Positions 8,310-39,874 of a DNA stretch of 64,000 bases are shown here, in pieces. The DNA comes from Oscillospiraceae bacterium. Lineage in GTDB: Bacteria; Bacillota; Clostridia; Oscillospirales; Acutalibacteraceae. Where the stretch lies: positions 68,533-132,532 of the forward strand of contig SVPE01000005.1 of NCBI GenBank assembly GCA_015066015.1, read 5' to 3'. A program made the translations under genes and the position numbers. How positions within the stretch are numbered: position 1 is the stretch's first letter; each line of letters starts with the position of its first letter. The notes beneath the pieces are model-generated. The model saw only the letters and a list, made by a program, of their open reading frames with translations. It made no database searches and had not been told where the DNA came from.

Positions 8310-8334
8310 TTAAATAACGGCCTCCGGGCTTCAG

Positions 8335-8369: not shown

Positions 8370-8412
8370 GACTGAAAAGAAAAATGATTACAGAAAACAT
8401 ATAATTTGGTAC

Positions 8413-8487
8413 ATCTTGTGGCAGTAGTGTCTTAAAACACAAGATATCGTTTTTGGTCCCTTTTACTAAAAGAGACCTCGTTTTTTT
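8413..8487 (+). terminator. two further terminator-like hairpins with T-runs
   Basis: ATCTTGTG-(17 nt)-CACAAGAT followed by ATCGTTTTTGG. Then GGTCCCTTT-tacta-AAAGAGACC (one mismatch) followed by TCGTTTTTTT. Confidence 0.45.
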
Positions 8488-8574
8488 GTCAAAATAACAG
8501 ATTTGTTAAACTAAACAAATTAAAATTAATACATCTATGCAAAATGTAGAATTAAAAAAAAATTAAAAAATATA

Positions 8575-8603
8575 TTGAAAATCTTGAGTTCAAATGATAT
8601 ACT
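8575..8603 (+). promoter_or_regulatory. sigma-A type promoter of the 10,378-aa gene (TTGAAA, 17 nt, TGaTATACT extended -10)
   Basis: -35 TTGAAA at 8575-8580 and -10 TATACT at 8598-8603, with TG at 8595-8596. It sits in a very AT-rich upstream region and leaves a ~135-nt leader. Confidence 0.55.
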
Positions 8604-8737
8604 TACTATAGTTATAGGTGTCTCTATGGGCGAATTGCACCCTTTTTTAGGGAAATTCGCTTTAAAAGCGTTATTTTTGACGCTGAGAAATCCTATTTTA
8701 GATCATATACAATCTTTCATTTAAGGAGGAAAATTTT

Positions 8738-26700: not shown

Positions 26701-29700
26701 CGATAAGGTTGTAAACGGCATTATCGCAATGCTCGTAGGTCTTCTCGGCGGTCTCGACGAAAAGACCTGGGGCACAATCACCGACATCCTTGGTTATGTT
26801 AAGGATATCGTTGGTCTGAACATTGACATCACTCCTGCAGCTTATGCAGCAGAAGGTAACAAGCTTGCTCCCTTCATCAACGCTGTTGATGTTAAGAGAG
26901 ACGTTGTTGACGAAGACGGCAACGTAACAGGCGAAGAAAGAATTCCTGTAGCTGACCTCACATGGGCTGACGTTGCTGAGTTCTACACCAAGTACGAATA
27001 CCGTTACATGGTAGAAGCAGCTAAGCCGGCAGAAGGTGTAGAGGGCGAAGAAGGCTACAAGGCTCCCGTTGAAGCTAAGTATGTAACCGTATGGTTCGCA
27101 GATGCTGACCTTAACGGTAAGGATCATACACCTACAACAGGCGACTATGCAGGCAAGACCTTCAAGCTTGAAAAGGTTGAAACTGTATACTACGGTTATG
27201 AGTACACAATTCCCGCAGTCGGCGAAGAGGGTGCTGAGGACTATGTAGCAGCTAAGACTGAAACACTCAAGTCAACTGACAGCGAGCTTACCGAATATAA
27301 GGTAGGCGAGGTAACCTACGCTCTTACAGCGAAGGGTGAAGTTGAACGTGTTCACAACACCAAGGTTGAATCCGACTTCGTATGGGGTGTAGCAGAAGGT
27401 GCAACACTCAATGAAAAGGCTGACAAGCTCGTTGCAGTTGTAATTGATCTTCTTAAGCCTCTTGACGGTGTGCTTGAGCTTCTCCTTGCAGGCGGCGTAT
27501 ATGAATTCGACGGCACAACATACGGCGATTCACTCGGCGCATTCGAAGAAATCAATATCATGGGCGGTAGTGGCTACAACTACGCTATTATCCCGCTTCT
27601 TGAGGCTCTCAGCGTTCCTGCTGACAAGATCCTCACTCAGGCAGACTACGAAGCAACAATCGCAACAAAGGGTACACTCGGTTACATTCTGGAGACAGTT
27701 CTTCACACTGTAAACGACAACCTCGATAAGCCTCTTGACTTCGTACTCGGTCTCTTCGCAAACCTTGCATACACAATCTCCAAGAACGGTGCAACAACCT
27801 TCGTATCCAACCTCATTGCTCCTCTCAGTGAAGTAATTGAAGCTATCGAAGGCGTACTTCCCGTAGCTATCAAGGTTAACCTTATGGCTCTTATGGATGG
27901 CGGCAGTGTTGCTGAAATCCTTCTCGGCAGTGACGTAGCACTCAAGGGCGCAGAAGTTGGTCTTACACTTGACCTCGACTGTGATACTCTTGAAGCTCTC
28001 CTTGCAAAGGTTCTCGCTAAGTTCGTAGCAGGCTTTGATATCACAATCAGCTTCAAGGATATCGCTGCTAAGTCAGCAAAGCTTGACGAAATGGGCGACA
28101 TCGAATACTTCAACTCCAAGGTAGATCCCAAGTGGGATATCTGCCTCGGCATACCCGGAAAGAATATCCAGGGCGACACAGCAGCAACAATCATCACTCT
28201 CCTCGCTATGGTTATTACTACCGATAATATTGACGCACTTCTCCAGATGCTCAATCTTGACATCAATACACTTGACAAACCCATCGCAGACCTTATCAAT
28301 AAGGCAATTGAAAGTCCTGACGTTCTCATCGGTGCAGTTATCAAGCTCCTTGCTAATAACTACGATGTAGTTGGTGTGATCGAAGCAATGGTATTCTACT
28401 TCCTCGGCGAAGCTGAATACGATTACTCAAACATCAAGGGTGGTCTCCTCAATGGTGGACACAGTGCAGTCAACAGCGCAATCAGCAAGTTCGATAAGAT
28501 GGTTAACAACCTCATTCCGAAGCTCCTCAAGCTCCTCGGCAATGATCTTGATAAGCCCGTTGAAATCATCGCTGACATCTATAACGGTCTTGGCGAAGAT
28601 GCAGCAGACGCTGACATCAAGGCAGTAGTTGACTATCTCCTCAACGACCTTGTATTCAACGACAAGATGATGAACCAGCTTCTCGGTCTTATCGTTGGTC
28701 TCCTCGGCGGTATTGATGAAAAGACATTCAAGACAATCGTTGATATCGTTAAGGAAGTTCTCGGCATTGACCTTTCACCCGCAGGCGTAGCAGCAATTTC
28801 TGAAGCTAACGGCGGTAAGGTTGCAGCATTCATCAATGCTCACGAAGCATCTGATAAGGATGCAGGCCTCACATGGGCTGACATTGCTAACGCTCACGCT
28901 TGGTACGAATATAAGTACTGTGTAGTTGAAGCTAAGGAAGCAGTCGGCACAGAAGGTGAAGAAGGTTACGTGCCCGCAGTTGAAGCTAAGTATGTAACAA
29001 CTCACTTTGCTGATGCTGACCTCGACGGTGAGGATCATACTCCCACAACCGGCGACTACGCAGGCAAGACATTCAAGCTTGAAAAGGTTACAAAGGACGA
29101 TAAGCACGTAACTAAGGTTATCCTCGAAGAAACCTGGAATATCTCCGATAAGGACGACTTCCTCGGTATCCTTTACGAAGTAACCGCAGTTGTTGAACCT
29201 CTCCTTGCATTCCTCTTCAAGGGTGAAAACATCAACATCCTCATTGATGACTTCGGTCTCAAGGGTAGCGATGGTTATACACACGCACTTATTCCTCTTG
29301 CAAAGGCACTGCACATTGAAATAGAAGAAGATGTAACTAAGTTTGATGATGCAAACGAAATGCTCAAGGAAGTTGTAAACGGTATCTTCGGTCTCGTTGA
29401 AGACATCGAAAAGGCTCCCATATCAACAATTCTTGAGGTACTCGGCAGCGCATCCTACTTCATCGCAAACGACGGTGTTGCACTCGTTATCAACAACCTT
29501 ATCGCTCCTGTAACAGGTCTTATCTCTATCTTCGAGAAGAAGACAACTGTTGAAGTAAACGGCGAAATAGTTGAAAAGAGCGAAGGCATCACAATGGCTG
29601 ACATCAATGCACTCCTTAAGAGCCTCATTAAGATGGATCTTAACGATATCACAGGTATCGCTGGTGCAGACGGCAGCAAGCTCGTTTCAATGATCAACGG

Positions 29701-32700
29701 ACTTCTTCCCAAGGTTTACCTTGTTGACGAAGCAACAGGCGAAAAGACAAGACTCGCAGAGCCTCTTCCCGCTAAGTTCTTCGAAATCATGAGCACATAT
29801 GCTATCAACTATGACAGCATGACAAATGCTCAGAAGAAGGACGCAGCAAATATCAGAACTCTTGAAGTAACCGAGTGGTCAGTTGATAAGGCAGACGTAC
29901 TTATGTATCTCCTTTCAACAGTTTGCTCTGACGACTTCCTTGCATTCATCGGCAACCTTGCTAAGGCAGAAGAAGGCACCGTTCTCGGTGATGTAATCTA
30001 CGGCCTTGCAGGTGACGAAGACCTTGTAATCAACATTATCTCAATGCTTCTCAATGAGTATAAGCTTGTATATAACAAGTACGCTCAGGTTGACATTACA
30101 AAGATCAATGTTGATCCTAAGGATCCTCTTACCGATACAAACCTTGCACAGGCAATCCAGGCAATCGACGGTCTTGTACCCGCAATCATCGGTCTCCTTG
30201 TTAAGGATGCTGATTCACTCAAGGGTCTTGTTGAAAACCTTGTTGCAGGCGCAGACCTCGGCAACCTTCTCATGAATCTCCTTGTTCCTCTCCTTGCAGG
30301 TCTCGACATCGACGAAATCCTCGGCTATGTCAAGGAATTCAGTAACCTCAATGTCAAGCTTGATCCTTCCGCATGGACTGCAGATGCTGACAGCGAAATC
30401 GCTAAGTTCATCCTTGCAGCTGATGAGGATAAGGACGGTAAGGTAACATGGGCAGATGTAGAAGCATTCTACACTCAGTATGAATTCACATACACAATTC
30501 CTGCAGTTGGTGCAGAAGGTGAAGAAGGCTATGTAGCAGCTAAGACTGAAACAGTCTTCAAGCCCGCCGGCACAACGAAGATTACAATCGGTGAAGGTAA
30601 GGACGCTAAGACCTATGACCTCACAAAAGTTAACGAATACGAATACACCTACACCGTAACAACAGGTGAGGGTGAAGAAGCTAAGACAGAAGAAAAGACC
30701 ATCATCCTTGATAAGGACGATTACACAACATATGATGTTGACGGTAACGAAGAAACTGCTGATGTTGAAGTAACACTCAGCAAGCCTGTCCAGAAGTCAA
30801 AGATGGTAAGCGAATATGATTGGAACATCGATAACTTCGACGGTCTCAAGAACTTCGCAGTTGACCTTCTCAAGCCTCTCGACGTAGTATTCGAGCTTCT
30901 CCTTGCAGGTGCAAACATCATCGTTGCTCCTGATACTAAGACAGATGTTGAACCCTATCCCGCAGAAATCACAGTACGTGGCGGTGACGGCTACAACTTC
31001 GCAATCATTCCTCTTCTTGAAGCTCTCGGCGCAACCGGTCTCAAGACTCAGGCTGAATACGAAGCTCAGGCTGCAACTGACGGTTCACACCTCAAGTATG
31101 TTCTTGACGTACTCTTCGCAGAAGTTGAAGAAATCCTTGCAACTCCTGTATCACAGCTTATGTCAAGACTTGCAAATCTCTTCTACTTCCTTGGTAACAA
31201 CTCCGCAAACGACCTCGTTGATAACCTTCTTGCTCCTGTCAATACTCTTATTGCAGAAGTAGATCCCATCTTCCCGCTTGCAATCAACATCGATGTAAGC
31301 AAGATCGGTACAGATGATATCATCGGCCTCTACCTTGGTAAGGCACACGACGGCGTTGAAGCTGGTATCCATGTAAATGTAGAATCCACTGCTATTGCAA
31401 CACTCCTCAATGACCTTCTTGCAGGCATCGAAATCAACGGCACAAAGCTTGGTCTCAGCCTTGACCTTAACTGGCTTGAAATCGCAGCTAAGATGGCTAA
31501 GACCGAAGACGCTACAAAGCAGTCAACAACCGGTGCTAAGATTGCTACAGTTGCTTCCAAGATGGATTATAAGTCATATGAAAACGTTGTAGGTAACACC
31601 GAATATGCAGACGGTAAATACTACAATATCCAGGGTGACGTAGTTGACACCTTCATAACTCTCCTTCAGGTTCTTCTTACAGACAACAATACTGAAGCTC
31701 TCAAGAACCTTATCGAAGGTCTCCTTAAGGATGCACCTCAGGAGGTTAAGGATATTCTTGATGATATCCTTTCAGATCCCGACGCAATCGAAAAGCTTGT
31801 TGGCGTTGTAGTTCTTCTCCTTACCGGTAGAGGTGAAATGGAAGACTATCCTCTTGCCTTCGCATACAAGTTCCTCGGTGAACTCAACTTCAACTACAAG
31901 AATGACGAAATCAACGCAGCAATCAGCAAGTTTGACAAGATGGTTGTTCGTGAGGCTGTTGGCATCCTTAAGATGTTCGGTACTCCCGCAGCTGATAAGA
32001 AGGAAGAAGATTACAACTTCCTTGAGAAGATGGTAGTCGGCGTTTCCGATAAAGAAAATGCAACTCTTGCCGATATCGTTGACTGGCTCCTCGGTGAATT
32101 CGCATTCACTTCAGAGAACTTCACAGGTCTTATGGAAATCCTCAACAATGTTCTTGCAGATGCTATCACAGCAGAGCTTGCAGACATTCTTGCAACAATT
32201 CTTCCCATCAGGCTTATGCCTTATGAATTTGCAGAGGCAACAGGCAACGCTAAGCTTCAGGCTTATGTTGGTAAGGCTGTAACAAAGGCAGTTGATGCAC
32301 TTGTATTTGCAGACGATGCAACTGATGAAGACAAGGCAAAGGCTATTGACGAAGCTAAGAAGGCAGTAACATGGGCAGACGTTCGTGCAGCCTATGCAAC
32401 ATCTGCTGAAAAGGACGGCAAGACTGTATGGACATACAACTACGGTGAAGGCGACAACGCATTCACATGGGGTGTAGAAGATAAGGATACATTCGTAGGT
32501 GCAATCCTTGACCTTCTCAAGCCTCTCAACCCGATCCTCGACTTCCTGTTCGCAGGTAAGGAACTCGCATTTGAAATCGAAGGCGTTAAGCTCTGGGGTG
32601 CAGACGGTTACGCAAACGCAATTGTTCCTCTTCTTAACGCTCTCGGTCTCAAGCAGCTCGGCGTTGAAATGCCCGCAACTGCAGCAGATTCAACAACAGC

Positions 32701-35700: not shown

Positions 35701-38700
35701 GGTTCTTGCATTCCTTCTTACAAATGAAGACCTTGTGGTAACCGTTGAAAATAACGGTCAGAAGGCTCAGCTTACACTCAAGGGCGGTAACGCTTATGAG
35801 TCAGCTATCGTTCCCATCCTCTACCAGGGTCTCGGTCTTGAAGAAATCATCACCGGCACTAATAAGGCAAAGGTTGAATCCGCTGTTAAGGTTGATTCTG
35901 CAAATGCAGCAATTGAAGCAGTTGTTGACGCACTTCTTGTTGACCTTGTAGGCGCAATTAAGAAGGCTCCTCTCTCAACAATCCTTACAGTAGTAGGTAA
36001 CCTCGGTTACTTCATTGCAAACGACGACGTTGCAGTTGCAATCCAGAACCTTGTAGCTCCTGTACTCGGTATCGTAGATGCTCTCGGCGGCGTAATCTCC
36101 AGAACACAGCTTGATACTCTTATCGAAGGTCTCGCTAAGATTGAGCTTCCCAACGGTAAGATGCTCAACATCACCAACATTATCAACATTGCCGGCGACA
36201 ATGGTGCAATCCTTGTTGACCTCATCAACGGTCTCCTTCCCGGTATCGAGATTAAGGATGATCAGGGTAATGTTATCCAGGTAATCAATGCACTTCCCGA
36301 CACCTTCTTCCTTGACCTTGCTAAGGCAGCTGTTAAGGTAACAGATCCCGAAACAGGTCTTGTTGAAGGCGAAACAGATGCAAAGACATGGACCACCGAT
36401 AATGGCGGCGCAATCATGTACGTACTTTCAACCGTACTTACAACTGACTTCCTCAACATCCTTTGCGATGTAATCGGTATTGAAGAGAAGACAGAAGACG
36501 GTAAGGACAACATGGTATACGGTATCATTACTTCACTTGCAGGTTCTGCAGATGCAGTAGTTGATCTCCTTCTCAAGCTTCTCAACAGATATCTTGTTGA
36601 ATACAAGGCATATGTACAGCCTGAAATCAATAAGACAAAGATTAACTATGAAGGCGGCGAAGCTGCTCACAGACAGTTCAATCAGGTTATTTCAAACCTT
36701 GACGGACTTATCCCCGTAATCTTCGAACTTCTTGTTAAGCAGGAAGGTGTAAACAACCTTGCAGATCTCGTATATCCGTTATTTGTTAAGGATGACATCG
36801 CTAACCTCCTTGTAAGTGCTATTGCTAAGCTTCTTGCAGGTCTTCCCGCAGAGACAATTACAATGATTGAAGATCTTGTAACTGATCTTGCAAACGTCAA
36901 GAATGCTACAGTTAAGGATGCAGACGGCAACGAAGTTGAAGTATTCAGCATCGCACCTACAGCATTCAAGGCTGACAACTTCAAGTCTAAGCTTGACGAA
37001 TACATCGGCGATGCAAAGACTTGGGCAGAAGTATGGGCAGCACACAGTGAAGACAAGAAGGATGAAAACGGTAATATCGTTTATGCTAAGGATGCAGACG
37101 GCAAGACAGTTGTTGATGCTGAAGGCAATCCTGTAGCAGAAAAGGTAGCATCCGCATATGCTTGGAACATCAAGACTGTAGATGACTTCATCAATCTCAT
37201 CTGTGACTTCCTTGCACCTCTTGACTGCGTACTTAACCTCCTTCTTTCAGGCGGTATGGTAAGAGCAGACTTTGACACAAATCGTCCTAACGAGACATTC
37301 ATGGGCAAGAGACTCGCTGTATTCGATGATATCGCAATCAGCGGCGGTAGCGGTTACAACTACGCAATCATTCCTCTCCTTGAGCTCTTCGGTGTTGATG
37401 CTGATACTCAGGAAGAGTACATGATCGCAGTTGAAACCAATTACAACAGCGCACTCTACCCCGTACTCACAGCACTCTTCGACAGAGTTGATGAAATCCT
37501 TACAGCTCCTGTTGAAAGTCTCCTCGATATTCTTGCAAACCTCTGCTATGCCCTTGGCACAGGCAGCGTTGCAACAATCGTTGAAAATCTCATTGCTCCT
37601 GTAAACAATGTAATTGCAGCAGTTGATGAAATCTTCCCGATCGCAATTCCCATCGACGTAGGCGCTCTCATCAATGGTCAGGCACTTAAGGTTTACCTTG
37701 GTGAAGCACATCCCGGTATCGATTCAGGTATCACCTTCAAGCTCGAAGGCAATGATGTAGCAGCACTTCTTGAAGATGTAATTGCCGGTATCAACATCGG
37801 CGGTGCATCACTCGAAGTTGACCTCGATTGGATGGCACTTGCAGCTGCAGCCGCAGCAGACGTAAACGGTGATGGTAAGGGAGACTTTGACGGTTCAAAG
37901 ATGAGCACCAAGTGGGATATCTACAACGGTGGCGCATACAAGAACCTCAAGGGTGATGCAGGCGACACATTCGTAACACTTATTAAGACAGTTCTCACAG
38001 AAAAGAACTGGAATGCTCTTAAGGAAGCTCTTGGCCTTGATCTCGGTGACTTCAACACAGTTGTTGACGGCATCATCAAGGATCCCACAAAGCTTATCGA
38101 CCTTATCGGCAGTATCTTCAGTATCGAAGGCGTTCACTACATTCCTGTACAGAACAGAAAGGTAGAAGCTAAGCCTTACGACTACACAACATACCTCTAC
38201 ATGACAGAGCAGAATGCTGACATTATTGCTCAGAACATCGACAAGCTTGTAAATGACATCCTTCAGGCAGCCGGCTTCGGTTCACTCAAGGGTCTTATCG
38301 GTACACTTCTCACTAACAAGCTTGCAGGTGACCTCATCGGTAAGATTACAGGTCTCCTCGGTGGCGATACAGTTGGTCCTATCCTCGGAACAATTGCAGG
38401 TCTTACCGGCGGCGAAGATCCGATCCTCGTTGTATACGATGCAGCAGGTAATGTTACAAAGCTTAACCTTGACCTCACAGTTAAGGGTTATGCAGATGCA
38501 TACGACAATTACGCTAACCATAACAGAGCCTTTGCTCAGGAACTCCACAGAGTTGCTAATGCAAACGGCACATGGGCAGATGTAAATGTTGCTAACATCG
38601 ATTGGGGTGTAAACGGCACAGTTACAAGCTTCGCAAATGCATTCGCATCAATCCTCAATCCTCTCAACAGTGTTCTCGAACTTCTCCTTGTTGGTGAAGG

Positions 38701-39874
38701 CAAGTCCCTTGGCTTACTTCCCGCTAAGGACGAAAACGGCGAATACAAGAAGGATGCAAACGGAATGCCTGAATGTGTTGTAAGCATCAAGGGCGGCAAC
38801 GGTTACGATTACGCAATCATTCCTCTCCTTGAAGCATTCGGTCTCAAGTCAGGCGAAGTTATGAACGTAACAGCTTATAACAACGCTTATAAGGCAGATA
38901 ACTCCAAGCTTATGGGTTACATCCTTGAGAGAGTTGGCTTCTTTGCTGACAGACTTCTCAACAAGCCCATCGACGGTCTTCTTACAATCCTTCCCAACCT
39001 TGCATACTTCATTGCAAACGAGGGTGTCGGACTTGTAGTCAGAAACCTTGTAGCTCCTGTTTACTCAATTCTTGGTCTCCTCGGTCTTGACCTTATGGAA
39101 ATGCTTAACCTCGGCAATCTCCTTGGCAGCATCGAAATTCCCATCGACATCCTCGGCGAGAAGCTTGGTCTCCACCTTCCCGATATCGATTGGATGAAGC
39201 TTGCACAGGAAGGCGCAAGTGAAGTAGTAGAAGTTACAACTTCACGTTCACAGGCTGCTAACTCCTTCGTCAATGCACAGAGACTTACAAACCAGGCAGA
39301 CGTTGATAATTACATTAAGAATTATCCCGTAGGCTATGAAGGCAGATCCAACAAGCTCACTCAGACCTTCATCGTAGCAGATAAGGGCGACGTTCTTACA
39401 CTTGTCTTCACATGGCTCTTCGAGCTCTTCGAGGATCCTGACAACCAGAACGCTCTTGTTGAGTGGATTGCAGCAACCTTCAACCTTCAGTCCGGCGCTA
39501 AGGAAACTGTAAGATATGCTATCAACCAGCTCTTCCTTAAGGCTAAGATTTATAACGCACCTGATATCATCGTAGGTGGTCTCTTCTCAGCTCTCGGTGT
39601 AGTACTTGTATTCAACGAAGCTCTCAAGGGAAATATTACTGAAGTTGTTAACATCTTCAAGGAACTCTTCGGTGCAGCAGGTAGCGGCGGATGCGCATAC
39701 TCAAGCATTGCTAAGATCATGGAAGATCTTACCGGTGTATGGGATGACACAATCGGTTCCGATCAGGATCATGAGGACGCAGTTGAAGACGCTGAAGAAA
39801 GCCTTAACTGGTTCCAGAGACTTATCAAGAAGATTAAGGAATTCTTCCAGAAGATTTTCAGTATCTTTAAGTAA
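8738..39874 (+). CDS. giant secreted modular protein, 10,378 aa, unknown family
   Basis: The 31,137-nt frame has no stop. SD AAGGAGG lies upstream of the ATG and the signal peptide is MKVGKKALSLLLAVIMIMSTMSVSFSVFA/ATN. Codon usage is consistent throughout and 15 internally homologous modules are present. A possible C-terminal TM segment (IIVGGLFSALGVVLVF) is followed by the amphipathic tail LNWFQRLIKKIKEFFQKIFSIFK. A terminator lies 39 nt downstream. Confidence 0.93.
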   Translation: MKVGKKALSLLLAVIMIMSTMSVSFSVFAATNTTADIYSAIVMHYDSLMDAIDKATVADESKRDTSGVPVKDGSEWVVKRDTLNGGWLAVSRAIASYAKGTVATNKTYVDLVEKIKLDAAGYAGSNGHPVADYNAILEYYKFGSTATGTFATQETVTLNIGTGFDLLAFKDVASIVDKTYSKATLKFTPKGELATGYTLSTADDISFTTEDFVEAGTDVAVIKGVLEQCVAADAFKTWFNAGTLTTQQLADMTNLLALFDTTMALAGLGYTEAEIWDHYVAPEVGKTYTETKAWYDNAGARAEAEPKADAYKERIDNLMATSTTAMTAEQLRDHKRAVETVIQEMDNDQFSVLVYQIVNEKEADYIGAAGRKVETYLKELGVKVGQAYAPLYADELVALATSVDSLKTKNDVELAEGQAWEDTEEYRANLNWLEAASELISNIDNYVLTGATFADIAESKTAADNAITEALYNKVASKVGELSLEIYGSTYREDKAAMDSIMANTILVGRSYSAVYEIAQEFIGYYNKALSLKNTASMQAVYESIYPDGLDAYEAYVHTLKAAAAKAYYDAISIVDTYISEAGKVAYYNFEVIISKANAISSSDGTYSVVGAFLADDPAYVPATGDVKPEDISALYNKIYTSGGYLDKAYAFKTGLNNLRNLAYTNANEQVVDKKLLAYILRQENVTGSAYAWESMLGNVSVDKIREFVNDIELVQQTGIETKNGKITAGGIEDLMSLAVEDLDKILISNDLGTLLNSLTAKENEETGATVGFLGVWGFDYTFKNPEGGTTTVKAGDPCKNLREFLINTIVGLLWGGSLQTTLFKLLSETVGGAVYNFGGAAFDVVVATKDGWQWLPEILHMAIPVMPHDYVENWTNPLTGDTNKTYQQIAQDYYVDWYKYFTGAAFGATGHAEYDYTDILYVLDKAPIDKKCNDDTTEWRSYWKGFTYADNISNDNRTEYRPGNVITEGSSAGQALDARYWGEANGQKQLPFCNDGANCTNEDHYFDSKKAWHVNDWDDFYRTFAVATCGLHVPLAELVTKKSLSPGDSEASNLFGEVDILAVGNGRGLDATLHASELGDALYDRLFIPLYRLLGIEGFYNVNTNPGGYHNKADIRSASGSYAKGNGRVSVGSIKDSGVTLWKYVLEPIVYWLENTLFVSPVKTIAELLPNLLTMLEYDQLIPKLKNINVDINATIKPMGITVNLDVTELNLSQIIMPLLEGLGLNQENLSKGINGLLGVLLGGERVTSKPNMNTTTDKWLMQVTKVTEEDEFGNKVTVNKTSDTEPAAWKSSADGNTYYLKNPGLLTATLYGLMVQENDPTTTENETLNNAFLDWIFLNGGTKAEIPLQIPVNRFMATGSLKGGDHPTAESITIPGVFSSVTNYHIYAEAGTSMLVLLRWLLNDGTLDSIMPLLNGLIKPTVDPETGKESSILDTIIPLVDGQADTLMAIIICLLNDYVIGFESFQDPAQNTNDWGKWNAEGTEFTPYLTDGGASQFKYGTVFQKYLSEGNKDVTANELAAGYGTGFTDADLLAKANLAVANVDKTIAKLVPTLFVALKDTLLGVDAIRDLGFEAVIEKAEKAIAEGNLDAVTLETVVLDTVIGNDLVDMIMNLVFGNGLPTKAKDAAGAAIQAHTDGETMTQTYTDGKGNTTTTTYYITAGSESAPLAYDANGDVEIVRQVKYALDADGNETDTIEGFVVNEGLLGGLFADPESILNKVLGALGDFNLDISPAGFYGLFSDTAYEEKTGTTAAFIKTAGANTHLATWLKSQAEKFSGKTLSSHAATKAELKNMTWGDIRAPKGTVWFDENTTDVIEKFNRFAEMLCDLLYPLNPVLAFLLSGQDITLFDELKLQGENGYSKGIVAILEALMLDAACMSQNSFDNYVYTAAIGISPIGYKNDANVNVDNLSSGTIIKDGETITKRFAVTKNSPLKPLLYAIGQLLFGTSDGTVDGLLDAPLTVLFSRLPNIAYNLYLFKGENGKNTCNFSIAVKNLIAPVTKVLEIVDPVLARLVNLDINELLDSFLDIESLINNLINGLAGLDEGTGSSVAIFEFGKLAADSATVDLNATTYRHGASKFTRFYGAPGKFFITLVRTLLTKDVVGAIGGLVEGIFNKEGENKTPEELEADQRVRDIITMIENNLCKPDTENKLAGGAYIDYLTSIIIDIFTDYLPEEGAFYFYEIINRVDEELIKLEDQIDAMSLDKYGIKHDGYDWATKPVDENGNVLFTEADVNETIENLDYVIRKAVPDVLSTLQSNGVIGGDLVASLQGDDGLWGLLKGLALDYALKDDGLTWLANAIIGLFGEGGSTSTTKIIQQALKAAGFDMTFDAFMYKKGADGKIDKSQPTAIYDYFTYGFYKKDGKLQSETGKMDWYYLDADHNNKADDINGDGNIDKNDEVELTFVQIYKNHSYELYETDDDGNLVIVDGQPKKKAVQIQITEEREEKNAEGVIEKVTYYKYIVLDDNGEETAEVIWLNESGKTEVVDGTVTKKLVADTKDKKVLDEDGNETNVTVYETALLSTAYPQVKTAEGYKYTYTNADGEVKEYYGAYQQMTVLDSGEDNDKGENIYYTLSPVYSEDIGEREWSWDIDDIIAGESESRDVFTLRKVKFINTLWDVLEPFAVVFSTLFAGDALRLFDTLNIEGGFGYDDYLLPLMRAFGLDSIIEMLGAEKLSQLQTKDAGGNPIEHLMTRDEYMAKVYNADGSINPEGVGYTVKNVVNYIFYFVEILCNYPVETLANALPTLAYFLYADGLTSILNGVLVPVTTLTNRLNEIIDLDVNAIGAGLIDYLATGDWANFQESLGGFMYIDPDTGNLVTNVDANLNLTYSILSLITNLEFDLSGIVGEDDPYEGKYGLVLFLNKENEHMAKQLLKDAAELEKNGGATAEQIKQMRQQARDCRAGTLKGFLKSIAALGDPVSEKQGLANEYIYKNYADYVYISSTGSVHVSKAEVLMFLLDFIFENNTLKEVIGSLLGYDLTDENTSDAELLDEIITNVFNNPNALVNLIVSLLTDYDVKQIVGVELKEIEAENHFEFYEDAGFDTHEEVLEHNKNLAAGEEKVTEISRVKTSATIDNLDALVGKILNLSILKDMLAKEDDPATAEDESGAFNKLFGITTDDTITLQGIVDAVFETYLYDDKGLNSIMDMLIGLLGGEGASQIVNIVLDILAGSGYDLTPEAFKTNVPQLAATIDKAEDLNEDGKISWDEVVKANSKYQYVVKNADGEVTATYFADEKGLTKLDHDGDAATEEIDVIADMVQKQTERKVDKQVTDETTGETSTVKVTEYKYTYSVKNAAGELEDKEVWLEEAGKTEWIETPDDPETDENEEVKHLVEAEMYDTDKQKTAVKISATWGLQTRDDFVDVLWNCIKPLAPIFAALFCEGELTLFDKISIKGAAGYDGFVLPLIKALGIPALRANKNADGTWSDDLTTANENEGEYFLKADKLVDYATYKATVYGSDGILGTGDDNGKIMLTTITDALFALVDSLCARPVNTLLTIIPYLAHFIESDGVDAILDNLLVPVTTITEMVKDIYKIDLLGMVKDLLRGLIKDMNDKAGETSDSTKPEDQATTGGAAAAYVLNVIEESEADAGQSAGEAIISELTDPAPALDLSGGDGSNYKFKDIIVELLEGVSINGTALNTIIDPEFIFLNLASIAWLPGVMKADNSGWDRYPSQKITVTINADRRGGSHSLSDAAVYTVDRESVLIKVLNDIVFTDGIRDLIGDLIKFDFGKDAMTTLTEEDSNYLLTVLLYGVFEDPEALERLLIDLLSWYEIEYEDARVKKTDVENAYDLGTTEPIDYEAAGLDKAQMEKLPEDFDSLIGKIVPAVIGMLPADALGDIKLQGANLEEMVHNLLADLMMDKEVTNDEGVKEMKYGFATQLVELLVNLLGGNATVSMIVGLLPTIIEGMDVELKDFKKVNTAFNTYFADYDTWAEAYEGLKTIKKYVAPDEPAADYVAPAYEEGTLNLYAVDENGKPVPEYAVDENGANIPVYANGTKVTDAWDNVWYTAAGTPANDEETALENTYVVKTVDGKIVYKYQYELKLTNTNSFGIATYQDVLDLVSQILAPFAPVLRFLLTEADLVALDGVHLTGGDGYDRFIIPLFEMLGVDKYIGAQKFLNKTDFAALDNAAFTAKVVEYIDGLISMVVNTPIQTIVDLVPELVFFVYSDGLAQAVEQLVAPLLTLVDMVNDITAKEVVIEGRDDALVALDIVALITDLINDNLMKPNNIAEIDGFYGDNGLITRLLTAEGLEALLQGLLDNANAWIYAYEYTIPKDMVEGATEDEVVTVYFNSADLDGATHIPTNGNGKDMTFTLTAVPDKNKTPIDLGLDKDGDGTADAAPIKGIFRWILEKTCKIEKVDTIRTYGAVNGKVWGVKANRADTLVQIISETLLGGGMLTSLLNSFGVEIKEGDILDTILKALTGENKYQLFVVLLTYFNEYDVETMLMDYLSFEKVEYAYETYVEGTRLTQRKLRRAIKKLDGSILTVVPELIQMLEEVEFIKMLLDKIGGYHGQSLKDLVHELLMAYAFNDQTMNQLMGLLIGLLGGEDLAGTLNTVLPLVNDIVGIDITPYGFYEATTSDAIKAYMEAAFAAFPAGPVLDDKGEPVLNDDGTPKMTTVKDDFTWADLAKYYTVYVYSYNDVTKTTKYEYTYEKDGKTEYYYVDEAVAADENGKYILKDGDNVYELTATQEVTKDFYSYETNYMYSKNADLHGTPVEGVDGKTWFGYEQATDTEGNLSWADEAKGIPEIKTVTKTVNKVDAEGNNIVVDGVIQTEEISEQVRATRVNALEGDAAFAWGIDAKTSYEDKADKFIDILAGIVVPLEGVLNFLLRGDSLYILPDEKTENSGVLEFYGNNGYENVIMPLFQALGVDQVGGTIVSAADYEAGRGTALTLTAITDGIFSIVEALTDGPLEYIFTLLPSLSYFISCNGPEIVLNNLLSPVLALLNLADPIVGDLLDDLLGATLSGVFADYMPEDIDFTETTNYKAPIYVEVDGTGEFEGQMVKVPARTDSTTVTFRDETYYIDAGTDEGEIIEGKYVVTTETVDGELVPDFEEYNAYALTDLLKICGENGDNLIKILNKLVGPLLLAEDATEEDKAAFQLLPETFFEDYAKHAITINKQTANADFYYYYEDAEGNRIKIKDDLYSSDMGEIKEARYVVDWFKVDIADSAVYLLDNVLSESLLNEIARIAKIDINKEGDILGGILKNLIEGNFNGLVVADIITALFENYTIKYNELYGEYITPDHSHLNTLETQDDKDKAARVPGQLDTIIENALPAIAPILSDLLAPKEGAEPTILNDIFDNYDTIANDAAVADLYEVVEYLLDDLVFSDELVNTLAALIINLIGTTDIVGTIIEYFGLTGIKLDPQSYLATVKKAYENKTEMADAVAALAGIIGEAKTWADVVKNDTTPLYAYEYVDGVNEDGTAKKFTVYLADENATTYELTKTEGEGEEAKEVKYEFALTQVLDADKNRVVKAEYNKEENGENVADVTWGVNAASDKKTAFIKALAVIVEPLFPVLQLVLQGKTLTLIGHDKAAYEPVNMVEYNADGVATTIIDDSRTGEEIGNGYVELMGVNGYEELLVPILDAIGGLEAFGAYSADNTDGIMTVAEFCAINNAYDMLSYIVNVVFGFVNNLVEAPVTYLATYLPSLLYFIGSDGVYNAVHSVLQLVNALIAVAEPLIGANGIKLSDTIGLPLDLLMLKLDDSTVPGKVQKTVDGKFVYIAKGDENKEEIYLDKAGLTKNGETEIEAVMVDGMVTVEGLCSLINGLIKKDNLINKDIILKLAGYLGDYAVINTVKRNATSALYDTKLDAYVNMNGDIVAKKDGDIWVDAYGNATTKPATGSQMITIVGDTKYTLTGLLQFALADGLVGGLVDTSEMEGILKTIIDNVMGPDATKNVTEILIKLLNKYVITYKAIEEPAEALVPAATDYAKYGVEKTEVQLALGNIQKLLPEVLDLLGVGSLDKLVADNLYTDKVVNGIIAMLVGLLGGLDEKTWGTITDILGYVKDIVGLNIDITPAAYAAEGNKLAPFINAVDVKRDVVDEDGNVTGEERIPVADLTWADVAEFYTKYEYRYMVEAAKPAEGVEGEEGYKAPVEAKYVTVWFADADLNGKDHTPTTGDYAGKTFKLEKVETVYYGYEYTIPAVGEEGAEDYVAAKTETLKSTDSELTEYKVGEVTYALTAKGEVERVHNTKVESDFVWGVAEGATLNEKADKLVAVVIDLLKPLDGVLELLLAGGVYEFDGTTYGDSLGAFEEINIMGGSGYNYAIIPLLEALSVPADKILTQADYEATIATKGTLGYILETVLHTVNDNLDKPLDFVLGLFANLAYTISKNGATTFVSNLIAPLSEVIEAIEGVLPVAIKVNLMALMDGGSVAEILLGSDVALKGAEVGLTLDLDCDTLEALLAKVLAKFVAGFDITISFKDIAAKSAKLDEMGDIEYFNSKVDPKWDICLGIPGKNIQGDTAATIITLLAMVITTDNIDALLQMLNLDINTLDKPIADLINKAIESPDVLIGAVIKLLANNYDVVGVIEAMVFYFLGEAEYDYSNIKGGLLNGGHSAVNSAISKFDKMVNNLIPKLLKLLGNDLDKPVEIIADIYNGLGEDAADADIKAVVDYLLNDLVFNDKMMNQLLGLIVGLLGGIDEKTFKTIVDIVKEVLGIDLSPAGVAAISEANGGKVAAFINAHEASDKDAGLTWADIANAHAWYEYKYCVVEAKEAVGTEGEEGYVPAVEAKYVTTHFADADLDGEDHTPTTGDYAGKTFKLEKVTKDDKHVTKVILEETWNISDKDDFLGILYEVTAVVEPLLAFLFKGENINILIDDFGLKGSDGYTHALIPLAKALHIEIEEDVTKFDDANEMLKEVVNGIFGLVEDIEKAPISTILEVLGSASYFIANDGVALVINNLIAPVTGLISIFEKKTTVEVNGEIVEKSEGITMADINALLKSLIKMDLNDITGIAGADGSKLVSMINGLLPKVYLVDEATGEKTRLAEPLPAKFFEIMSTYAINYDSMTNAQKKDAANIRTLEVTEWSVDKADVLMYLLSTVCSDDFLAFIGNLAKAEEGTVLGDVIYGLAGDEDLVINIISMLLNEYKLVYNKYAQVDITKINVDPKDPLTDTNLAQAIQAIDGLVPAIIGLLVKDADSLKGLVENLVAGADLGNLLMNLLVPLLAGLDIDEILGYVKEFSNLNVKLDPSAWTADADSEIAKFILAADEDKDGKVTWADVEAFYTQYEFTYTIPAVGAEGEEGYVAAKTETVFKPAGTTKITIGEGKDAKTYDLTKVNEYEYTYTVTTGEGEEAKTEEKTIILDKDDYTTYDVDGNEETADVEVTLSKPVQKSKMVSEYDWNIDNFDGLKNFAVDLLKPLDVVFELLLAGANIIVAPDTKTDVEPYPAEITVRGGDGYNFAIIPLLEALGATGLKTQAEYEAQAATDGSHLKYVLDVLFAEVEEILATPVSQLMSRLANLFYFLGNNSANDLVDNLLAPVNTLIAEVDPIFPLAINIDVSKIGTDDIIGLYLGKAHDGVEAGIHVNVESTAIATLLNDLLAGIEINGTKLGLSLDLNWLEIAAKMAKTEDATKQSTTGAKIATVASKMDYKSYENVVGNTEYADGKYYNIQGDVVDTFITLLQVLLTDNNTEALKNLIEGLLKDAPQEVKDILDDILSDPDAIEKLVGVVVLLLTGRGEMEDYPLAFAYKFLGELNFNYKNDEINAAISKFDKMVVREAVGILKMFGTPAADKKEEDYNFLEKMVVGVSDKENATLADIVDWLLGEFAFTSENFTGLMEILNNVLADAITAELADILATILPIRLMPYEFAEATGNAKLQAYVGKAVTKAVDALVFADDATDEDKAKAIDEAKKAVTWADVRAAYATSAEKDGKTVWTYNYGEGDNAFTWGVEDKDTFVGAILDLLKPLNPILDFLFAGKELAFEIEGVKLWGADGYANAIVPLLNALGLKQLGVEMPATAADSTTALGYIVDALLGTTEAKGAVDAICEAPITSILKIVGNLSYFIANGNLDELIQNLLAPVFGLLDLAESLVSREDLDTIIEGLAKITLPGGKALNITNIINIAGAEGEGLVALINELIGGIRVYEKEIVVEDGKNVSKIVVYDKAYVEDHPEFDWWAVDKTDADGNVVYETDEEGNEVLDKDGKPVAEQVYYKVLQMINLLPDDFFKQFAKYVVEESELNGVAVTTVGADVDSWTINVGDALMYVLSTVLDYDFFETILKKVGLDLSQGIGATVLTMADKENELIDVLVMLLNDYKVVYSKVEQATLPADVTTPYTNFGQDKDGNDLLDNENTTNAVAALDPIINTVVAMLADGKTLSDLVNGLIADADLANIIMNALVPVLAGLDKNENLDLDAILSYVYELTNIKLETLAPTLWDDDFGSALVTFIDGSETWAEVEAKYTQYEYSYTADGAEEATVVYKPEAGRHDYTVTVGEGENAKTYDLRPVLDGTTQKSKMLSEFNWGIEDLNDLVPLVCDLLAPLDIVFQILLSAKPIIALEDDVTSDRNDIRIMGGYGYNYAIIPLLEAFGADGLLTQEEYEEKAAADGSHLKYILETLIGEVEEILETPLNELLSRLANLFYFIGSDGINAIADNLLAPLNTLIEEVDDLFPLAIRIDVAADEILGLYLGKEHEGIPAGITVNVSGADLAALINDLIGDLTIGEIHLNLHLDLDWTEIAAKMAKKDTDGKILTTGTKQVYNLGTVKNPAVADLVNLTGDAANAIVTLLDTVLTEENCKNIYTLVTGLLGDMDPTLKSVIEELIGSPDSIKGIVAAVVLILTGEYEVAELDYIFKYLGVLTFAKSADAKTAVESLDRVLIKAVPVIIELLAKDVTDTENFLYKLYHGTNKNATLDNIVNYLLNDFLFTDSMMNTITGALLGILKNLGTDITDILKDFLGIDLAPVAFAAASGNAQLIAYVGNAATWADVVAAHTDADGNLAAVFTDVAGKEAWVGAILDMLKPLEKVLAFLLTNEDLVVTVENNGQKAQLTLKGGNAYESAIVPILYQGLGLEEIITGTNKAKVESAVKVDSANAAIEAVVDALLVDLVGAIKKAPLSTILTVVGNLGYFIANDDVAVAIQNLVAPVLGIVDALGGVISRTQLDTLIEGLAKIELPNGKMLNITNIINIAGDNGAILVDLINGLLPGIEIKDDQGNVIQVINALPDTFFLDLAKAAVKVTDPETGLVEGETDAKTWTTDNGGAIMYVLSTVLTTDFLNILCDVIGIEEKTEDGKDNMVYGIITSLAGSADAVVDLLLKLLNRYLVEYKAYVQPEINKTKINYEGGEAAHRQFNQVISNLDGLIPVIFELLVKQEGVNNLADLVYPLFVKDDIANLLVSAIAKLLAGLPAETITMIEDLVTDLANVKNATVKDADGNEVEVFSIAPTAFKADNFKSKLDEYIGDAKTWAEVWAAHSEDKKDENGNIVYAKDADGKTVVDAEGNPVAEKVASAYAWNIKTVDDFINLICDFLAPLDCVLNLLLSGGMVRADFDTNRPNETFMGKRLAVFDDIAISGGSGYNYAIIPLLELFGVDADTQEEYMIAVETNYNSALYPVLTALFDRVDEILTAPVESLLDILANLCYALGTGSVATIVENLIAPVNNVIAAVDEIFPIAIPIDVGALINGQALKVYLGEAHPGIDSGITFKLEGNDVAALLEDVIAGINIGGASLEVDLDWMALAAAAAADVNGDGKGDFDGSKMSTKWDIYNGGAYKNLKGDAGDTFVTLIKTVLTEKNWNALKEALGLDLGDFNTVVDGIIKDPTKLIDLIGSIFSIEGVHYIPVQNRKVEAKPYDYTTYLYMTEQNADIIAQNIDKLVNDILQAAGFGSLKGLIGTLLTNKLAGDLIGKITGLLGGDTVGPILGTIAGLTGGEDPILVVYDAAGNVTKLNLDLTVKGYADAYDNYANHNRAFAQELHRVANANGTWADVNVANIDWGVNGTVTSFANAFASILNPLNSVLELLLVGEGKSLGLLPAKDENGEYKKDANGMPECVVSIKGGNGYDYAIIPLLEAFGLKSGEVMNVTAYNNAYKADNSKLMGYILERVGFFADRLLNKPIDGLLTILPNLAYFIANEGVGLVVRNLVAPVYSILGLLGLDLMEMLNLGNLLGSIEIPIDILGEKLGLHLPDIDWMKLAQEGASEVVEVTTSRSQAANSFVNAQRLTNQADVDNYIKNYPVGYEGRSNKLTQTFIVADKGDVLTLVFTWLFELFEDPDNQNALVEWIAATFNLQSGAKETVRYAINQLFLKAKIYNAPDIIVGGLFSALGVVLVFNEALKGNITEVVNIFKELFGAAGSGGCAYSSIAKIMEDLTGVWDDTIGSDQDHEDAVEDAEESLNWFQRLIKKIKEFFQKIFSIFK
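11950..12295 (+). repeat. module core 0 (degenerate first copy)
   Basis: ..LYDRLFIPLYRLLGIEG .. VSPVKTIAELLPNLLTMLEYDQLIPKL; matches the IPL..LG and LP.L...L halves of the later cores. Confidence 0.5.
14198..14775 (+). repeat. module core 1
   Basis: FNRFAEMLCDLLYPLNPVLAFLLSG..LQGENGYSKGIVAILEALMLD..LPNIAYNLY..KNLIAPVTKV. Confidence 0.75.
15908..15943 (+). other. EF-hand / dockerin-like 12-residue Ca-binding loop inside the giant ORF
   Basis: DINGDGNIDKND fits D1-x-N3-x-D5-G6-x-I8-x-x-x-D12. Confidence 0.5.
16583..17078 (+). repeat. module core 2
   Basis: WDVLEPFAVVFSTLFAG..IEGGFGYDDYLLPLMRAFGLD..LPTLAYFLYADG..GVLVPVTTL. Confidence 0.8.
18341..18376 (+). other. EF-hand-like 12-residue loop inside the giant ORF
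   Basis: DLNEDGKISWDE fits D1-x-N3-x-D5-G6-x-I8-x-x-x-E12 and runs into the recurrent (T/S)W(A/D)(D/E)V motif. Confidence 0.5.
18830..19354 (+). repeat. module core 3
   Basis: WNCIKPLAPIFAALFCEG..IKGAAGYDGFVLPLIKALGIP..IPYLAHFIESDG..NLLVPVTTI. Confidence 0.8.
20927..21340 (+). repeat. module core 4
   Basis: VSQILAPFAPVLRFLL..LTGGDGYDRFIIPLFEMLGVD..VPELVFFVYSDG..QLVAPLLTL. Confidence 0.8.
23188..23626 (+). repeat. module core 5
   Basis: LAGIVVPLEGVLNFLLRG..FYGNNGYENVIMPLFQALGVD..LPSLSYFISCNG..NLLSPVLAL. Confidence 0.8.
25274..25819 (+). repeat. module core 6
   Basis: LAVIVEPLFPVLQLVLQG..LMGVNGYEELLVPILDAIGG..LPSLLYFIGSDG..SVLQLVNAL. Confidence 0.8.
27415..27856 (+). repeat. module core 7 (A subtype)
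   Basis: VIDLLKPLDGVLELLLAG..IMGGSGYNYAIIPLLEALSVP..FANLAYTISKNG..NLIAPLSEV. Confidence 0.8.
29153..29542 (+). repeat. module core 8 (B subtype)
   Basis: VTAVVEPLLAFLFKG..LKGSDGYTHALIPLAKALHIE..LGSASYFIANDG..NLIAPVTGL. Confidence 0.8.
30422..30457 (+). other. EF-hand-like 12-residue loop inside the giant ORF
   Basis: DEDKDGKVTWAD fits D1-x-D3-x-D5-G6-x-V8-x-x-x-D12 and is fused to the TWADVEAF module-boundary motif. Confidence 0.5.
30841..31270 (+). repeat. module core 9 (A subtype)
   Basis: AVDLLKPLDVVFELLLAG..VRGGDGYNFAIIPLLEALGAT..LANLFYFLGNN..NLLAPVNTL. Confidence 0.8.
32485..32899 (+). repeat. module core 10 (B subtype)
   Basis: ILDLLKPLNPILDFLFAG..LWGADGYANAIVPLLNALGLK..VGNLSYFIANG..NLLAPVFGL. 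Confidence 0.8.
34211..34636 (+). repeat. module core 11 (A subtype)
   Basis: VCDLLAPLDIVFQILLS..IMGGYGYNYAIIPLLEAFGAD..LANLFYFIGSDG..NLLAPLNTL. Confidence 0.8.
35651..36094 (+). repeat. module core 12 (B subtype)
   Basis: ILDMLKPLEKVLAFLL..LKGGNAYESAIVPILYQGLGLE..VGNLGYFIANDD..NLVAPVLGI. Confidence 0.8.
37181..37633 (+). repeat. module core 13 (A subtype)
   Basis: ICDFLAPLDCVLNLLLSG..ISGGSGYNYAIIPLLELFGVD..LANLCYALGTG..NLIAPVNNV. Confidence 0.8.
38621..39091 (+). repeat. module core 14 (A-like, last copy)
   Basis: FASILNPLNSVLELLLVG..IKGGNGYDYAIIPLLEAFGLK..LPNLAYFIANEG..NLVAPVYSI. Confidence 0.8.

Follow-up and report, generated by a model that had tools for sequence, protein, structure and literature searches.

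Alternating A and B modules in the distal third of a giant modular protein gene from an Oscillospiraceae bacterium

The stretch of DNA analyzed here (the window, 64,000 nucleotides from an Oscillospiraceae bacterium) belongs to a short-read metagenome contig and carries a giant modular gene at positions 8738..39874 of the + strand. According to the list of open reading frames and its translation, the product is an acidic protein of 10,378 aa (D+E 15.8% versus K+R 7.5%), and the gene call of the source contig gives the same length. The reading frame is open across 31 kb with a dN/dS near 0.2, and values of 0.12-0.33 are obtained for every module in comparison with four related species. These ratios indicate that purifying selection acts on every module. 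In a Pfam scan, the upstream neighbor (ORF 1185-8309) shows Listeria-Bacteroides repeats, and the giant protein shows none. No partner genes are conserved near the giant gene. Also, downstream synteny is limited to the closest species, being the reason why a functional tie to the downstream GH3 gene was rejected.

At the N-terminus of the protein, hydrophobicity predicts a Sec-type signal peptide (MKVGKK...SVFA/AT; 8738..8824, + strand). A 19-mer beginning at aa 10 is more hydrophobic than any other in the protein, and similar N-termini are found in the homologs P0017 and P0019. The second most hydrophobic 19-mer, at aa 10274, corresponds to a short C-terminal hydrophobic stretch, APDIIVGGLFSALGVVLVF (39557..39613, + strand), which is a candidate membrane anchor; two distant members of the family, P0011 and P0012, show a clear TM helix at the C-terminus with a basic tail behind it. 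The giant protein ends in a basic amphipathic tail, LNWFQRLIKKIKEFFQKIFSIFK (39803..39871, + strand), which is nearly identical in P0008, P0009, and P0026 and still recognizable in the distant P0007, P0013, and P0018. Moreover, the C-terminal HMM matches the ends of homologs. An LPx[TSA]G sorting signal is absent throughout the giant protein. A membrane anchor at the C-terminus is probable.

Between its termini, the protein comprises 14 clear modules plus a degenerate 15th near aa 1085, with 14 cores recognized by the core HMM. Modules range from ~480 to 800 aa and are homologous to each other over their whole length. Each opens with the boundary motif TWAD/E, followed by a beta-rich insert whose length varies and by the helical core (GGxGYxxAIxPLLEALG ... 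NLxYFI ... NLxAPV). Behind the core come a post-core segment that differs between subtypes and finally a helical linker. The boundary motif is probably a relic of an EF-hand-like loop. Canonical loops of this kind are present at three module boundaries (aa 2391, 3202, and 7229), single and not paired; the EF-hand_7 match in Pfam is weak (16.4 bits versus a cutoff of 30), and in the orthologs a canonical loop is found at only 21 of 429 module boundaries. AF2 models of medium confidence were obtained for one module of each subtype (M11, pLDDT 70.7; M12, pLDDT 70.9), and both are predicted to be mostly helical. The post-core segment is modeled as three short strands and a helix in the A-type M11 and as mostly helical in the B-type M12.

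The distal third of the 31-kb gene (window positions 26960-39874) holds eight modules in the order A-B-A-B-A-B-A followed by a terminal module, an architecture that can be written as (core-Atail core-Btail)n core-Atail core-Cterm, with n = 3. All of them lie on the + strand. The A-type modules are M7 (26960..28870, 637 aa, first-A positional class), M9 (30446..32368, 641 aa, middle class, with a canonical EF-hand-like loop at its start), M11 (33986..35575, 530 aa, middle class), and M13 (37019..38569, 517 aa, last-A class). The B-type modules are M8 (28871..30445, 525 aa, first-B class), M10 (32369..33985, 539 aa, middle-B class), and M12 (35576..37018, 481 aa, last-B class). M14 (38570..39871) closes the array; it combines an A-like core with a conserved C-terminal domain and forms a class of its own.

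The A-type cores (GGxGYN(Y/F)AIIPLLE) lie at nt 27563, 30980, 34346, and 37343 and the B-type cores at 29264, 32597, and about 35780, where a preliminary description of this DNA had placed them; the A-like core that it reported near 38.8 kb starts at nt 38792. In the nucleotide repeat families, A cores are separated by 3417, 3366, and 2997 nt and B cores by 3357 and 3195 nt, the longest nucleotide repeat being 300 nt at 74% identity. This agrees with the claimed AB units of 3.0-3.5 kb, single modules being 1.3-1.9 kb, and in a protein dot-plot the off-diagonals match the repeat period. The same description took TWA(D/E) as a boundary of the AB units. The motif does recur there; however, it does not belong to AB units only, since every module start carries TWAD/E (further sites at 28871, 32369, 35576, and 38570 and also at 20555, 22637, and 24971). 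It is specific for A modules only in the extended form TWA(D/E)VEA.YT.YEY.

Following the core, each subtype has its own segment. The Aspec HMM locates the A-specific segment at 27848..28150 in M7 (+ strand), 31262-31552 in M9, 34628-34927 in M11, and 37625-37930 in M13, with scores of 86-119 bits and an additional weak match in M14 (7 bits). The Bspec HMM locates the B-specific segment at 29588..29911 in M8 (+ strand), 32897-33187 in M10, and 36089-36424 in M12, with 73-124 bits and an additional weak match of 41 bits in the proximal module M5 (23885-24142). The consensus motifs first quoted for these segments are strong in M9/M11 for A and in M10/M12 for B, but weaker in M7 and M13 and in M8, respectively. 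Semiglobal module scores separate the subtypes as well, being 455-1070 for A against A, 474-574 for B against B, and 178-260 for A against B. The outlier among the latter is M7 against M8 (420), where a local segment common to both modules raises the score. In their inserts, M7 and M8 share a stretch of 137 nt at 71% identity.

In bootstrapped neighbor-joining (NJ) trees of the window modules, A and B fall into separate clades, as the preliminary description implied, with 82% support for A and 58% for B on cores alone and 94% and 87%, respectively, on full modules. On cores, the B clade reaches only 58% and M10 floats when its orthologs are included; part of the support for the A/B split comes from the post-core segments. 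M14 is placed within the A clade by only 10-17% of bootstraps, and the terminal-module clade is supported by 98%; M14 was thus rejected as a true A module. On the other hand, the proposal that the proximal modules are fused A+B content did not hold: each has a single core and none carries both A- and B-specific segments. M5 has the B-like segment only, and M1-M4 and M6 have neither. The extra length of the proximal modules corresponds to longer beta-rich inserts and linker regions. Among them, M2 and M3 are nearest relatives (62% in the core tree; module score 388), and the same tree unites M5 with M6.

The AB units are clearly related as whole blocks. The alignment of U2 with U3 scores 1605 versus -99 +/- 30 for shuffled sequences (z = 57). 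The roughly 60% protein identity initially estimated between M9+M10 and M11+M12 turned out to be 45%, a value of 59.5% being obtained for the codon-aligned DNA. Over all pairs of AB units, identity is 37-45% for protein and 51-60% for DNA, with U1 at 37-38% protein identity to U2 or U3. The nearest paralog pairs are M9/M11 (48%) and M10/M12 (41%), which are recovered with supports of 99% and 73-81%, respectively, and M7 and M8 lie outside these pairs (bootstrapped NJ). The A tree and the B tree are therefore congruent, which fits the duplication of the AB pair as one unit. A comparable case is the locus L013, where the M9-M10 unit is triplicated and the identities between copies run in parallel for A (54-63%) and B (56-68%). 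All trees are NJ trees with simple distance correction and midpoint rooting, built without a species tree.

Protein libraries and genomes were searched with profiles of this gene. A family with the GGxGYxxAIxPLLEALG core, defined by the presence of at least two cores matching the 148-position helical profile, comprises 613 representative proteins at E <= 1e-3 (clusters at 50% identity), with 2-14 cores per protein among the 150 listed. Pfam scans, which also took in the neighboring genes, gave nothing above threshold in the giant protein, which was scanned whole at E <= 0.1, or in nine other family members, and no NCBIfam match was obtained for the N-terminal region, one AB unit, the C-terminal module, or the upstream ORF. 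Sequence searches of the PDB returned only noise, whether they started from the core profile, from the module profile, or from the N-terminal 1,796 aa. Likewise, Foldseek, applied to the PDB with both AF2 models and to BFVD with the A model, gave best E values of about 0.3-0.5 and TM of about 0.1. Homology searches yielded 13 matches for the AB unit and 19 for the C-terminal domain, all hypothetical proteins and mostly from short contigs, and the giant proteins of Clostridia that literature searches retrieved were all of different kinds (RCC1 and Listeria-Bacteroides types). The protein family is thus undescribed; growth by AB super-repeats is in itself ordinary for giant surface proteins.

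A genome scan with A-type cores provided a comparison set of 59 species-level Oscillospirales MAGs (59 loci). The AB-array pattern is found in these 59 loci and in P0014-P0017, P0025, and P0026; all members of this subfamily found here come from MAGs of uncultured Oscillospirales from gut and rumen. Across them, modules cluster by position and not by species. Among the A classes, the first, the middle, and the last are each recovered as a clade with 100% bootstrap, and the first-B, middle-B, and last-B classes reach 99%, 81%, and 100%, respectively. In close relatives, best hits follow the order M7-M8-M9-M10-M11-M12-M13 by wide margins. Farther away, the second A of a species is often slightly nearer to M11 than to M9, and M9-type and M11-type copies do not separate within the middle A class, so that one early duplication looks the same as repeated ones. 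Identity to positional orthologs is up to 91%, versus 37-48% to modules of the same type within the protein. Compared with the loci L004 and L005, the gene shows a mosaic pattern of divergence.

The relatives carry two, three, or at least five AB units, so that copy number changes by entire AB periods. Three AB units, bounded on the left, are present outright in 35 loci, and five more (L025, L037, L038, L042, and L049) have three if an A tail below threshold is accepted. Two units are present in six loci and at least five in one locus; in complete library genes, P0017 has two and P0019 none. No AA or BB order inside a strong array is observed in the relatives examined. Because every module has a positional ortholog in dozens of species, the sequences indicate that the AB amplification is ancient and largely fixed, rather than recent or variable between close relatives. 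In agreement with this, the closest paralogous AB units are only 45-68% identical, and no recent duplicate is present.

These data sustain the two-step history first proposed, namely a divergence of A and B followed by amplification of the AB pair, given the separate clades, the congruent trees, and the differences in whole AB periods. The explanation that we consider likely is a secreted modular protein in which an old tandem duplication of the AB di-module was followed by orthologous evolution position by position, the product serving as a surface fiber or scaffold. An ancestral module would have split into the A and B subtypes, after which the AB di-module would have been tandemly duplicated as one unit, most likely by unequal homologous recombination in register between modules of the same type. 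Since there is no recent duplicate, this recombination is deduced from the pattern and not observed. A and B would be too divergent to pair, so that the array could change in length only by whole AB periods. Three AB units would have been present already in the common ancestor of many Oscillospirales species, each position being thereafter its own orthologous lineage under purifying selection, with occasional later loss to two units or gain to at least five. In this scheme, the reading of two-unit genes as losses rests on parsimony.

Regarding function, the predicted export signal and C-terminal anchor suggest an acidic fiber or scaffold at the cell surface, whose AB array would set its length and/or offer position-specific binding surfaces. 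A more specific idea, which we put forward tentatively, is that the protein is the largest example here of a family of giant envelope proteins (up to >10,000 aa) in which the AB array forms non-interchangeable stations, as in a scaffold or a molecular ruler, each kept for a distinct partner or contact throughout the divergence of these species instead of being equivalent spacers; its module of 500-800 aa has no recognizable relative in Pfam, NCBIfam, or the PDB. A rival and rather unlikely function is that of a docking scaffold, with each positional module binding a different partner as in a cellulosomal scaffoldin. Each position is indeed a separate orthologous lineage under purifying selection in many species, and because of this the modules do not look interchangeable. 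Also, the hosts belong to the Oscillospirales of gut and rumen, and scaffoldin systems are known from this group. However, no cohesin or dockerin signal is detected, the surroundings of the gene offer no conserved partners and keep downstream synteny in the closest species only, and a structural rod with specific contacts between neighbors would also conserve positions.

The origin of the alternation by independent duplications of single modules (A to A, B to B) or by insertions is improbable. Such single-module growth does seem to have taken place in the proximal part (M2/M3 and M5 with M6), and M13 is an A module without a B partner. Against it, the A and B trees are congruent, the parallel identity patterns of L013 involve A and B copies alike, differences between species are all of whole AB periods, and no relative places AA or BB in the strong array. 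It is still less probable that the alternating similarity is maintained by concerted evolution, with gene conversion linking every other module. One local exchange, the 137-nt stretch shared by M7 and M8, and the mosaic divergence from L004 and L005 would be in line with it; nonetheless, positional orthologs are nearer than modules of the same type within the protein, and the positional clades are supported by 99-100% (middle-B, 81%), which is the opposite of concerted evolution. Finally, an assembly artifact (mis-joins or a false ORF) has a negligible probability, because, although long repeats in a short-read metagenome contig are prone to mis-assembly, repeats of 51-60% DNA identity, the longest being 300 nt at 74%, are too diverged to mislead an assembler, at least 35 MAGs obtained independently in other studies have the same architecture, and the 31-kb frame is open at a dN/dS near 0.2.

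Under the favored history, an old AB duplication followed by evolution position by position, the array departs from the usual view of giant repeat proteins as unstable stacks of near-identical copies: the higher-order repeat would be old and fixed, and its seven modules each have orthologs in dozens of species. It would thus be a clean natural example of a two-module unit that expands and then specializes by position. Moreover, the family is sizeable and wholly unannotated, its members are among the largest genes of common rumen and gut Oscillospirales, and the proteins are probably major surface structures of these uncultured bacteria. The module boundaries, the subtypes, and the candidate C-terminal anchor make the family approachable by structure prediction, proteomics, and imaging.

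Several known systems share part of this design. Giant proteins of >10,000 aa from gut Clostridia/Oscillospiraceae were described by West-Roberts et al. (bioRxiv 10.1101/2023.11.21.568195), being made of RCC1, Listeria-Bacteroides, YG, or dockerin repeats. The protein studied here is similar in size and in its source, mammalian-gut Clostridia metagenomes, but does not contain their repeat types. Like the cellulosomal scaffoldins of Ruminococcaceae and Clostridia, it is a large secreted modular protein with a position-diversified array from the same order and habitat; unlike them, neither it nor nine family members match cohesin, dockerin, CBM, or SLH in Pfam.

Ebh carries an export signal at its N-terminus and a membrane-spanning anchor at its C-terminus, the end layout that is predicted for the giant protein. 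Ebh and Embp of Staphylococcus are also ~1-MDa Bacillota proteins built from a tandem unit of two different, mainly helical modules; in Embp, there are 10 F- and 40 FG-repeats, each unit consisting of two alpha-helical bundles (PMC7587433). The likeness is in design only. No FIVAR (PF07554) or GA (PF01468) match is found at Pfam E <= 0.1. Modules are 480-800 aa in the giant protein versus about 125 aa in Ebh/Embp, units number 2-5 versus about 40-50, and the copies here are diverged (37-48%) and orthologous by position, whereas those of Ebh/Embp are near-identical.

In SasG and Aap, alternating G5-E repeats were reportedly characterized by Gruszka and coworkers (PNAS, 2012). Differing neighbor modules are thought to help these proteins avoid misfolding. 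The strict A-B alternation of two related types of surface-protein module, amplified as a pair, is common to both cases. However, the giant protein has no G5 domain in Pfam and no LPXTG, and its modules are large and predicted to be mostly helical, whereas those of SasG are small beta structures.

Finally, titin and nebulin carry super-repeats that arose by duplication of blocks of already diverged modules, with positions conserved across species. They are eukaryotic cytoskeletal proteins of Ig/FnIII domains or 35-aa nebulin repeats, without homology to the giant protein and with another cellular setting. The likeness is in the higher-order repeat itself, which in the giant protein would likewise derive from a block of diverged modules, each block position being conserved across species.

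The whole A/B array lies within a single ORF of 10,378 aa (8738..39874, forward strand), and the same 10,378-aa gene is also called on the public source contig, which is 225 kb long and belongs to a JGI metagenome. Against four related species, dN/dS is 0.12-0.33 in every module; the gene is real, with constraint on each position. The protein is built from 14 successive modules (M1-M14) of 434-805 aa, bounded by the 13 occurrences of a TW(A)D/E motif plus one degenerate boundary. When searched with a helical-core profile (GGxGYxxAIxPLLEALG ... NLxYFI ... NLxAPV), each of the 14 modules gives exactly one core, and a weak 15th core appears in the N-terminal region. In the alignment of M7-M14, homology runs along the length of all modules; what varies most is the length of the beta-rich insert that follows TWAD/E, together with a post-core segment (tail) of ~100 aa. 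In the array region, a motif search places the module starts at 26960, 28871, 30446, 32369, 33986, 35576, 37019, and 38570 on the forward strand. TWA(D/E), proposed in the preliminary description as the boundary of AB pairs, does recur at the AB starts noted there, but it is not specific to them, being present at every module start. Canonical EF-hand-like loops (DxDxDGxIxxxD/E) at 15908-15943, 18341-18376, and 30422-30457 (forward strand) end exactly in the boundary TW(A)D/E or its counterpart, and therefore the boundary motif looks like a mostly degenerate relic of a calcium loop; in orthologs, 21 of 429 module boundaries carry a canonical loop. The only sizeable short tandem repeat of the gene (36 nt, 2.2 copies, 80% identity, 20666-20743) encodes YAVDENGKPxPE within the M4 insert.

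From M7 to M13, type A modules (M7, M9, M11, and M13) alternate with type B modules (M8, M10, and M12), the core positions given for both types in the preliminary description being correct. Semi-global scores are 455-1070 for A x A, 474-574 for B x B, and 178-260 for A x B excluding M7 x M8, an outlier at 420 raised by a common local segment. Also, a profile of the A-specific segment recovers the four A modules at 86-119 bits, with a weak A-like match in the terminal module M14 (7 bits), and that of the B-specific segment recovers the three B modules at 73-124 bits. A weaker B-like match follows the core of the proximal module M5 (23885-24142, 41 bits, E = 8e-15), and therefore the B-type segment is older than the distal AB array. 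Window-only NJ trees separate an A clade (bootstrap of 82% on cores and 94% on full modules) from a B clade (58% and 87%). At the DNA level, the start-to-start spacing is 3417, 3366, and 2997 nt for the A-core repeat families and 3357 and 3195 nt for the B-core families, the longest repeat covering 300 nt of M9 and M11 (74% identity), and the protein dot-plot shows off-diagonals matching these spacings, as anticipated for a period of ~3.0-3.5 kb. Module scores, segment profiles, and trees all split A from B and the off-diagonals are present, so that neither outcome named as refuting in the preliminary description is observed and the alternating super-repeat is real. The idea that proximal modules are fused A+B content does not hold, as each has one core and none carries both subtype segments.

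The inserts of M7 and M8 contain a 33-aa beta mini-motif, YVTVxFADADLxGxDHTPTTGDYAGKTFKLEKV (27095-27200 and 29006-29110), which is found as well in the M4 tail (about 21632) and is conserved in a homologous library protein (P0014). In DNA, the M7 and M8 copies match at 71% along 137 nt (repeat 26951-27087 and 28862-28998), well in excess of what A x B comparisons otherwise show, which suggests a local duplication or conversion across an A/B boundary.

Regarding the AB units (U1, M7+M8; U2, M9+M10; U3, M11+M12), protein identity is 45% for U2 and U3, lower than the ~60% estimated by eye, 37% for U1 and U2, and 38% for U1 and U3, with 51-60% in codon-aligned DNA. The nearest pairs in the NJ trees are M9 with M11 (99% bootstrap) and M10 with M12 (73-81%), M7 and M8 falling outside both, so that the A and B trees are congruent; on full modules, M13 joins the M9-M11 pair with 91% support. 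This congruence would be expected from an AB pair duplicating as one unit, and it supports the two-step history proposed earlier, in which a module diverged into A and B and the pair was then amplified.

Searched with the family profile, a set of 1.84 billion representative proteins yielded 613 members (E <= 1e-3); among the 150 listed, core number is 2-14 and length reaches 7,691 aa, and strong A and B tails occur in only one subfamily. Scanning one genome per species, with loci translated and annotated by core, A-tail, B-tail, and C-terminal profiles, gave 59 loci, every one from a gut MAG (ruminant, other animal, or human) of uncultured Acutalibacteraceae, Oscillospiraceae, or Ruminococcaceae. 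The pattern of the window, three AB units, a last A, and a terminal module, is scored outright in 35 loci, and accepting an A tail below threshold adds five more; two units are present in six loci and at least five in one (L013). Among complete library genes, P0017 (two units) and P0019 (none) deviate from three. L013 carries three copies of the M9-M10 unit, whose identities to one another run in parallel for A (54-63%) and B (56-68%). Thus, unit number differs between related genomes, always by whole AB periods. P0019 (5,829 aa) has a B-type tail directly after an M6-like module, followed by the last A and then the terminal module, and this looks like either a primitive state or the outcome of a large deletion in register. 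One MAG (JAFUQS01) holds two paralogous giant genes of the AB subfamily on different contigs (L034 and L046), with three units each.

Best-hit assignment recovers the order M7-M8-M9-M10-M11-M12-M13 with large margins in close relatives; in distant species, M11 rather than M9 is often the marginally better match for the second A, and two-unit genes are devoid of the middle B class. In many-species trees, first, middle, and last A each reach 100% bootstrap, and the corresponding B classes 99%, 81%, and 100%. The three-unit state is older than the divergence of most of these species, and the middle unit of distant species could come from one duplication or several, both fitting the tree. Along 26960-39871, divergence from two related loci is mosaic: against L004, M7 is 91% identical (dS 0.28) and M13 83% (dS 0.65), and against L005, M9 is 91% identical (dS 0.32) and M13 76% (dS 0.75), a hint that lineages have recombined within the gene.

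The simplest mechanism for pairwise growth would be unequal recombination in register between modules of the same type; A and B would be too divergent to pair with each other, and gains and losses would occur in AB periods only. Alternatively, pairs could duplicate because the structure requires A-B contacts. An origin of the pattern in concerted evolution is ruled out by identities of up to 91% between modules and their positional orthologs versus 37-48% between same-type modules of the same protein.

At its N-terminus, the protein carries a putative Sec signal peptide of typical form; its composition is strongly acidic (D+E 15.8%, K+R 7.5%), and no LPXTG motif occurs in its entire length. 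Hydrophobicity over 19 residues is highest at this putative signal peptide (aa 10) and next highest at aa 10274-10292 (39557-39613, forward strand), a stretch lying 100 residues before the C-terminus. Downstream lies a basic amphipathic tail, LNWFQRLIKKIKEFFQKIFSIFK (39803-39871, forward strand), almost invariant between species and still recognizable in distant family members; stretch and tail may be an anchor or sorting signal. The putative signal peptide, the acidic composition, the relic calcium-loop motifs, and the hydrophobic stretch plus tail at the C-terminus, taken with the evident TM helix and basic tail that close two distant members (P0011 and P0012), make it likely that the protein is a cell-surface fiber or scaffold that its C-terminus would hold in place. 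Over 18000-40000, the distal two-thirds of the gene, G+C is 0.445-0.472, versus 0.418-0.434 in its first 10 kb (8000-18000), a difference probably reflecting amino-acid composition; most flanking windows are at 0.40-0.44. The upstream neighbor (1185-8309, forward strand; 2,374 aa) has Listeria-Bacteroides repeats (Flg_new, E = 7e-15), gives no core modules in the core profile search, and probably represents another large surface protein.

Sequence searches of Pfam, NCBIfam, and PDB gave no match for the giant protein, nor did Pfam scans for nine further members of the family, and all homologs found by sequence are unnamed hypothetical proteins. AF2 models of M11 (A, pLDDT 70.7) and M12 (B, pLDDT 70.9) show a helical bundle round the core, a beta hairpin at GGxGY, and a helical linker, the post-core part being a small beta element in A and mostly helical in B; Foldseek of both models against PDB and of the A model against BFVD returned nothing significant. 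A survey of giant genes (bioRxiv 10.1101/2023.11.21.568195) covers giant Clostridia proteins of other kinds and not this one.

Finally, super-repeats in giant surface proteins are an already known phenomenon. SasG G5-E repeats and the super-repeats of titin and nebulin are comparable in design to the A/B array. The closest design analogs are Ebh/Embp, staphylococcal giant proteins made of amplified two-bundle FG units (PMC7587433), which share an amplified two-module unit with the protein studied here. When tested, it did not prove to be a member of the Ebh/Embp or SasG families; here, the phenomenon occurs in an undescribed protein family whose modules are unusually large and strictly orthologous by position.
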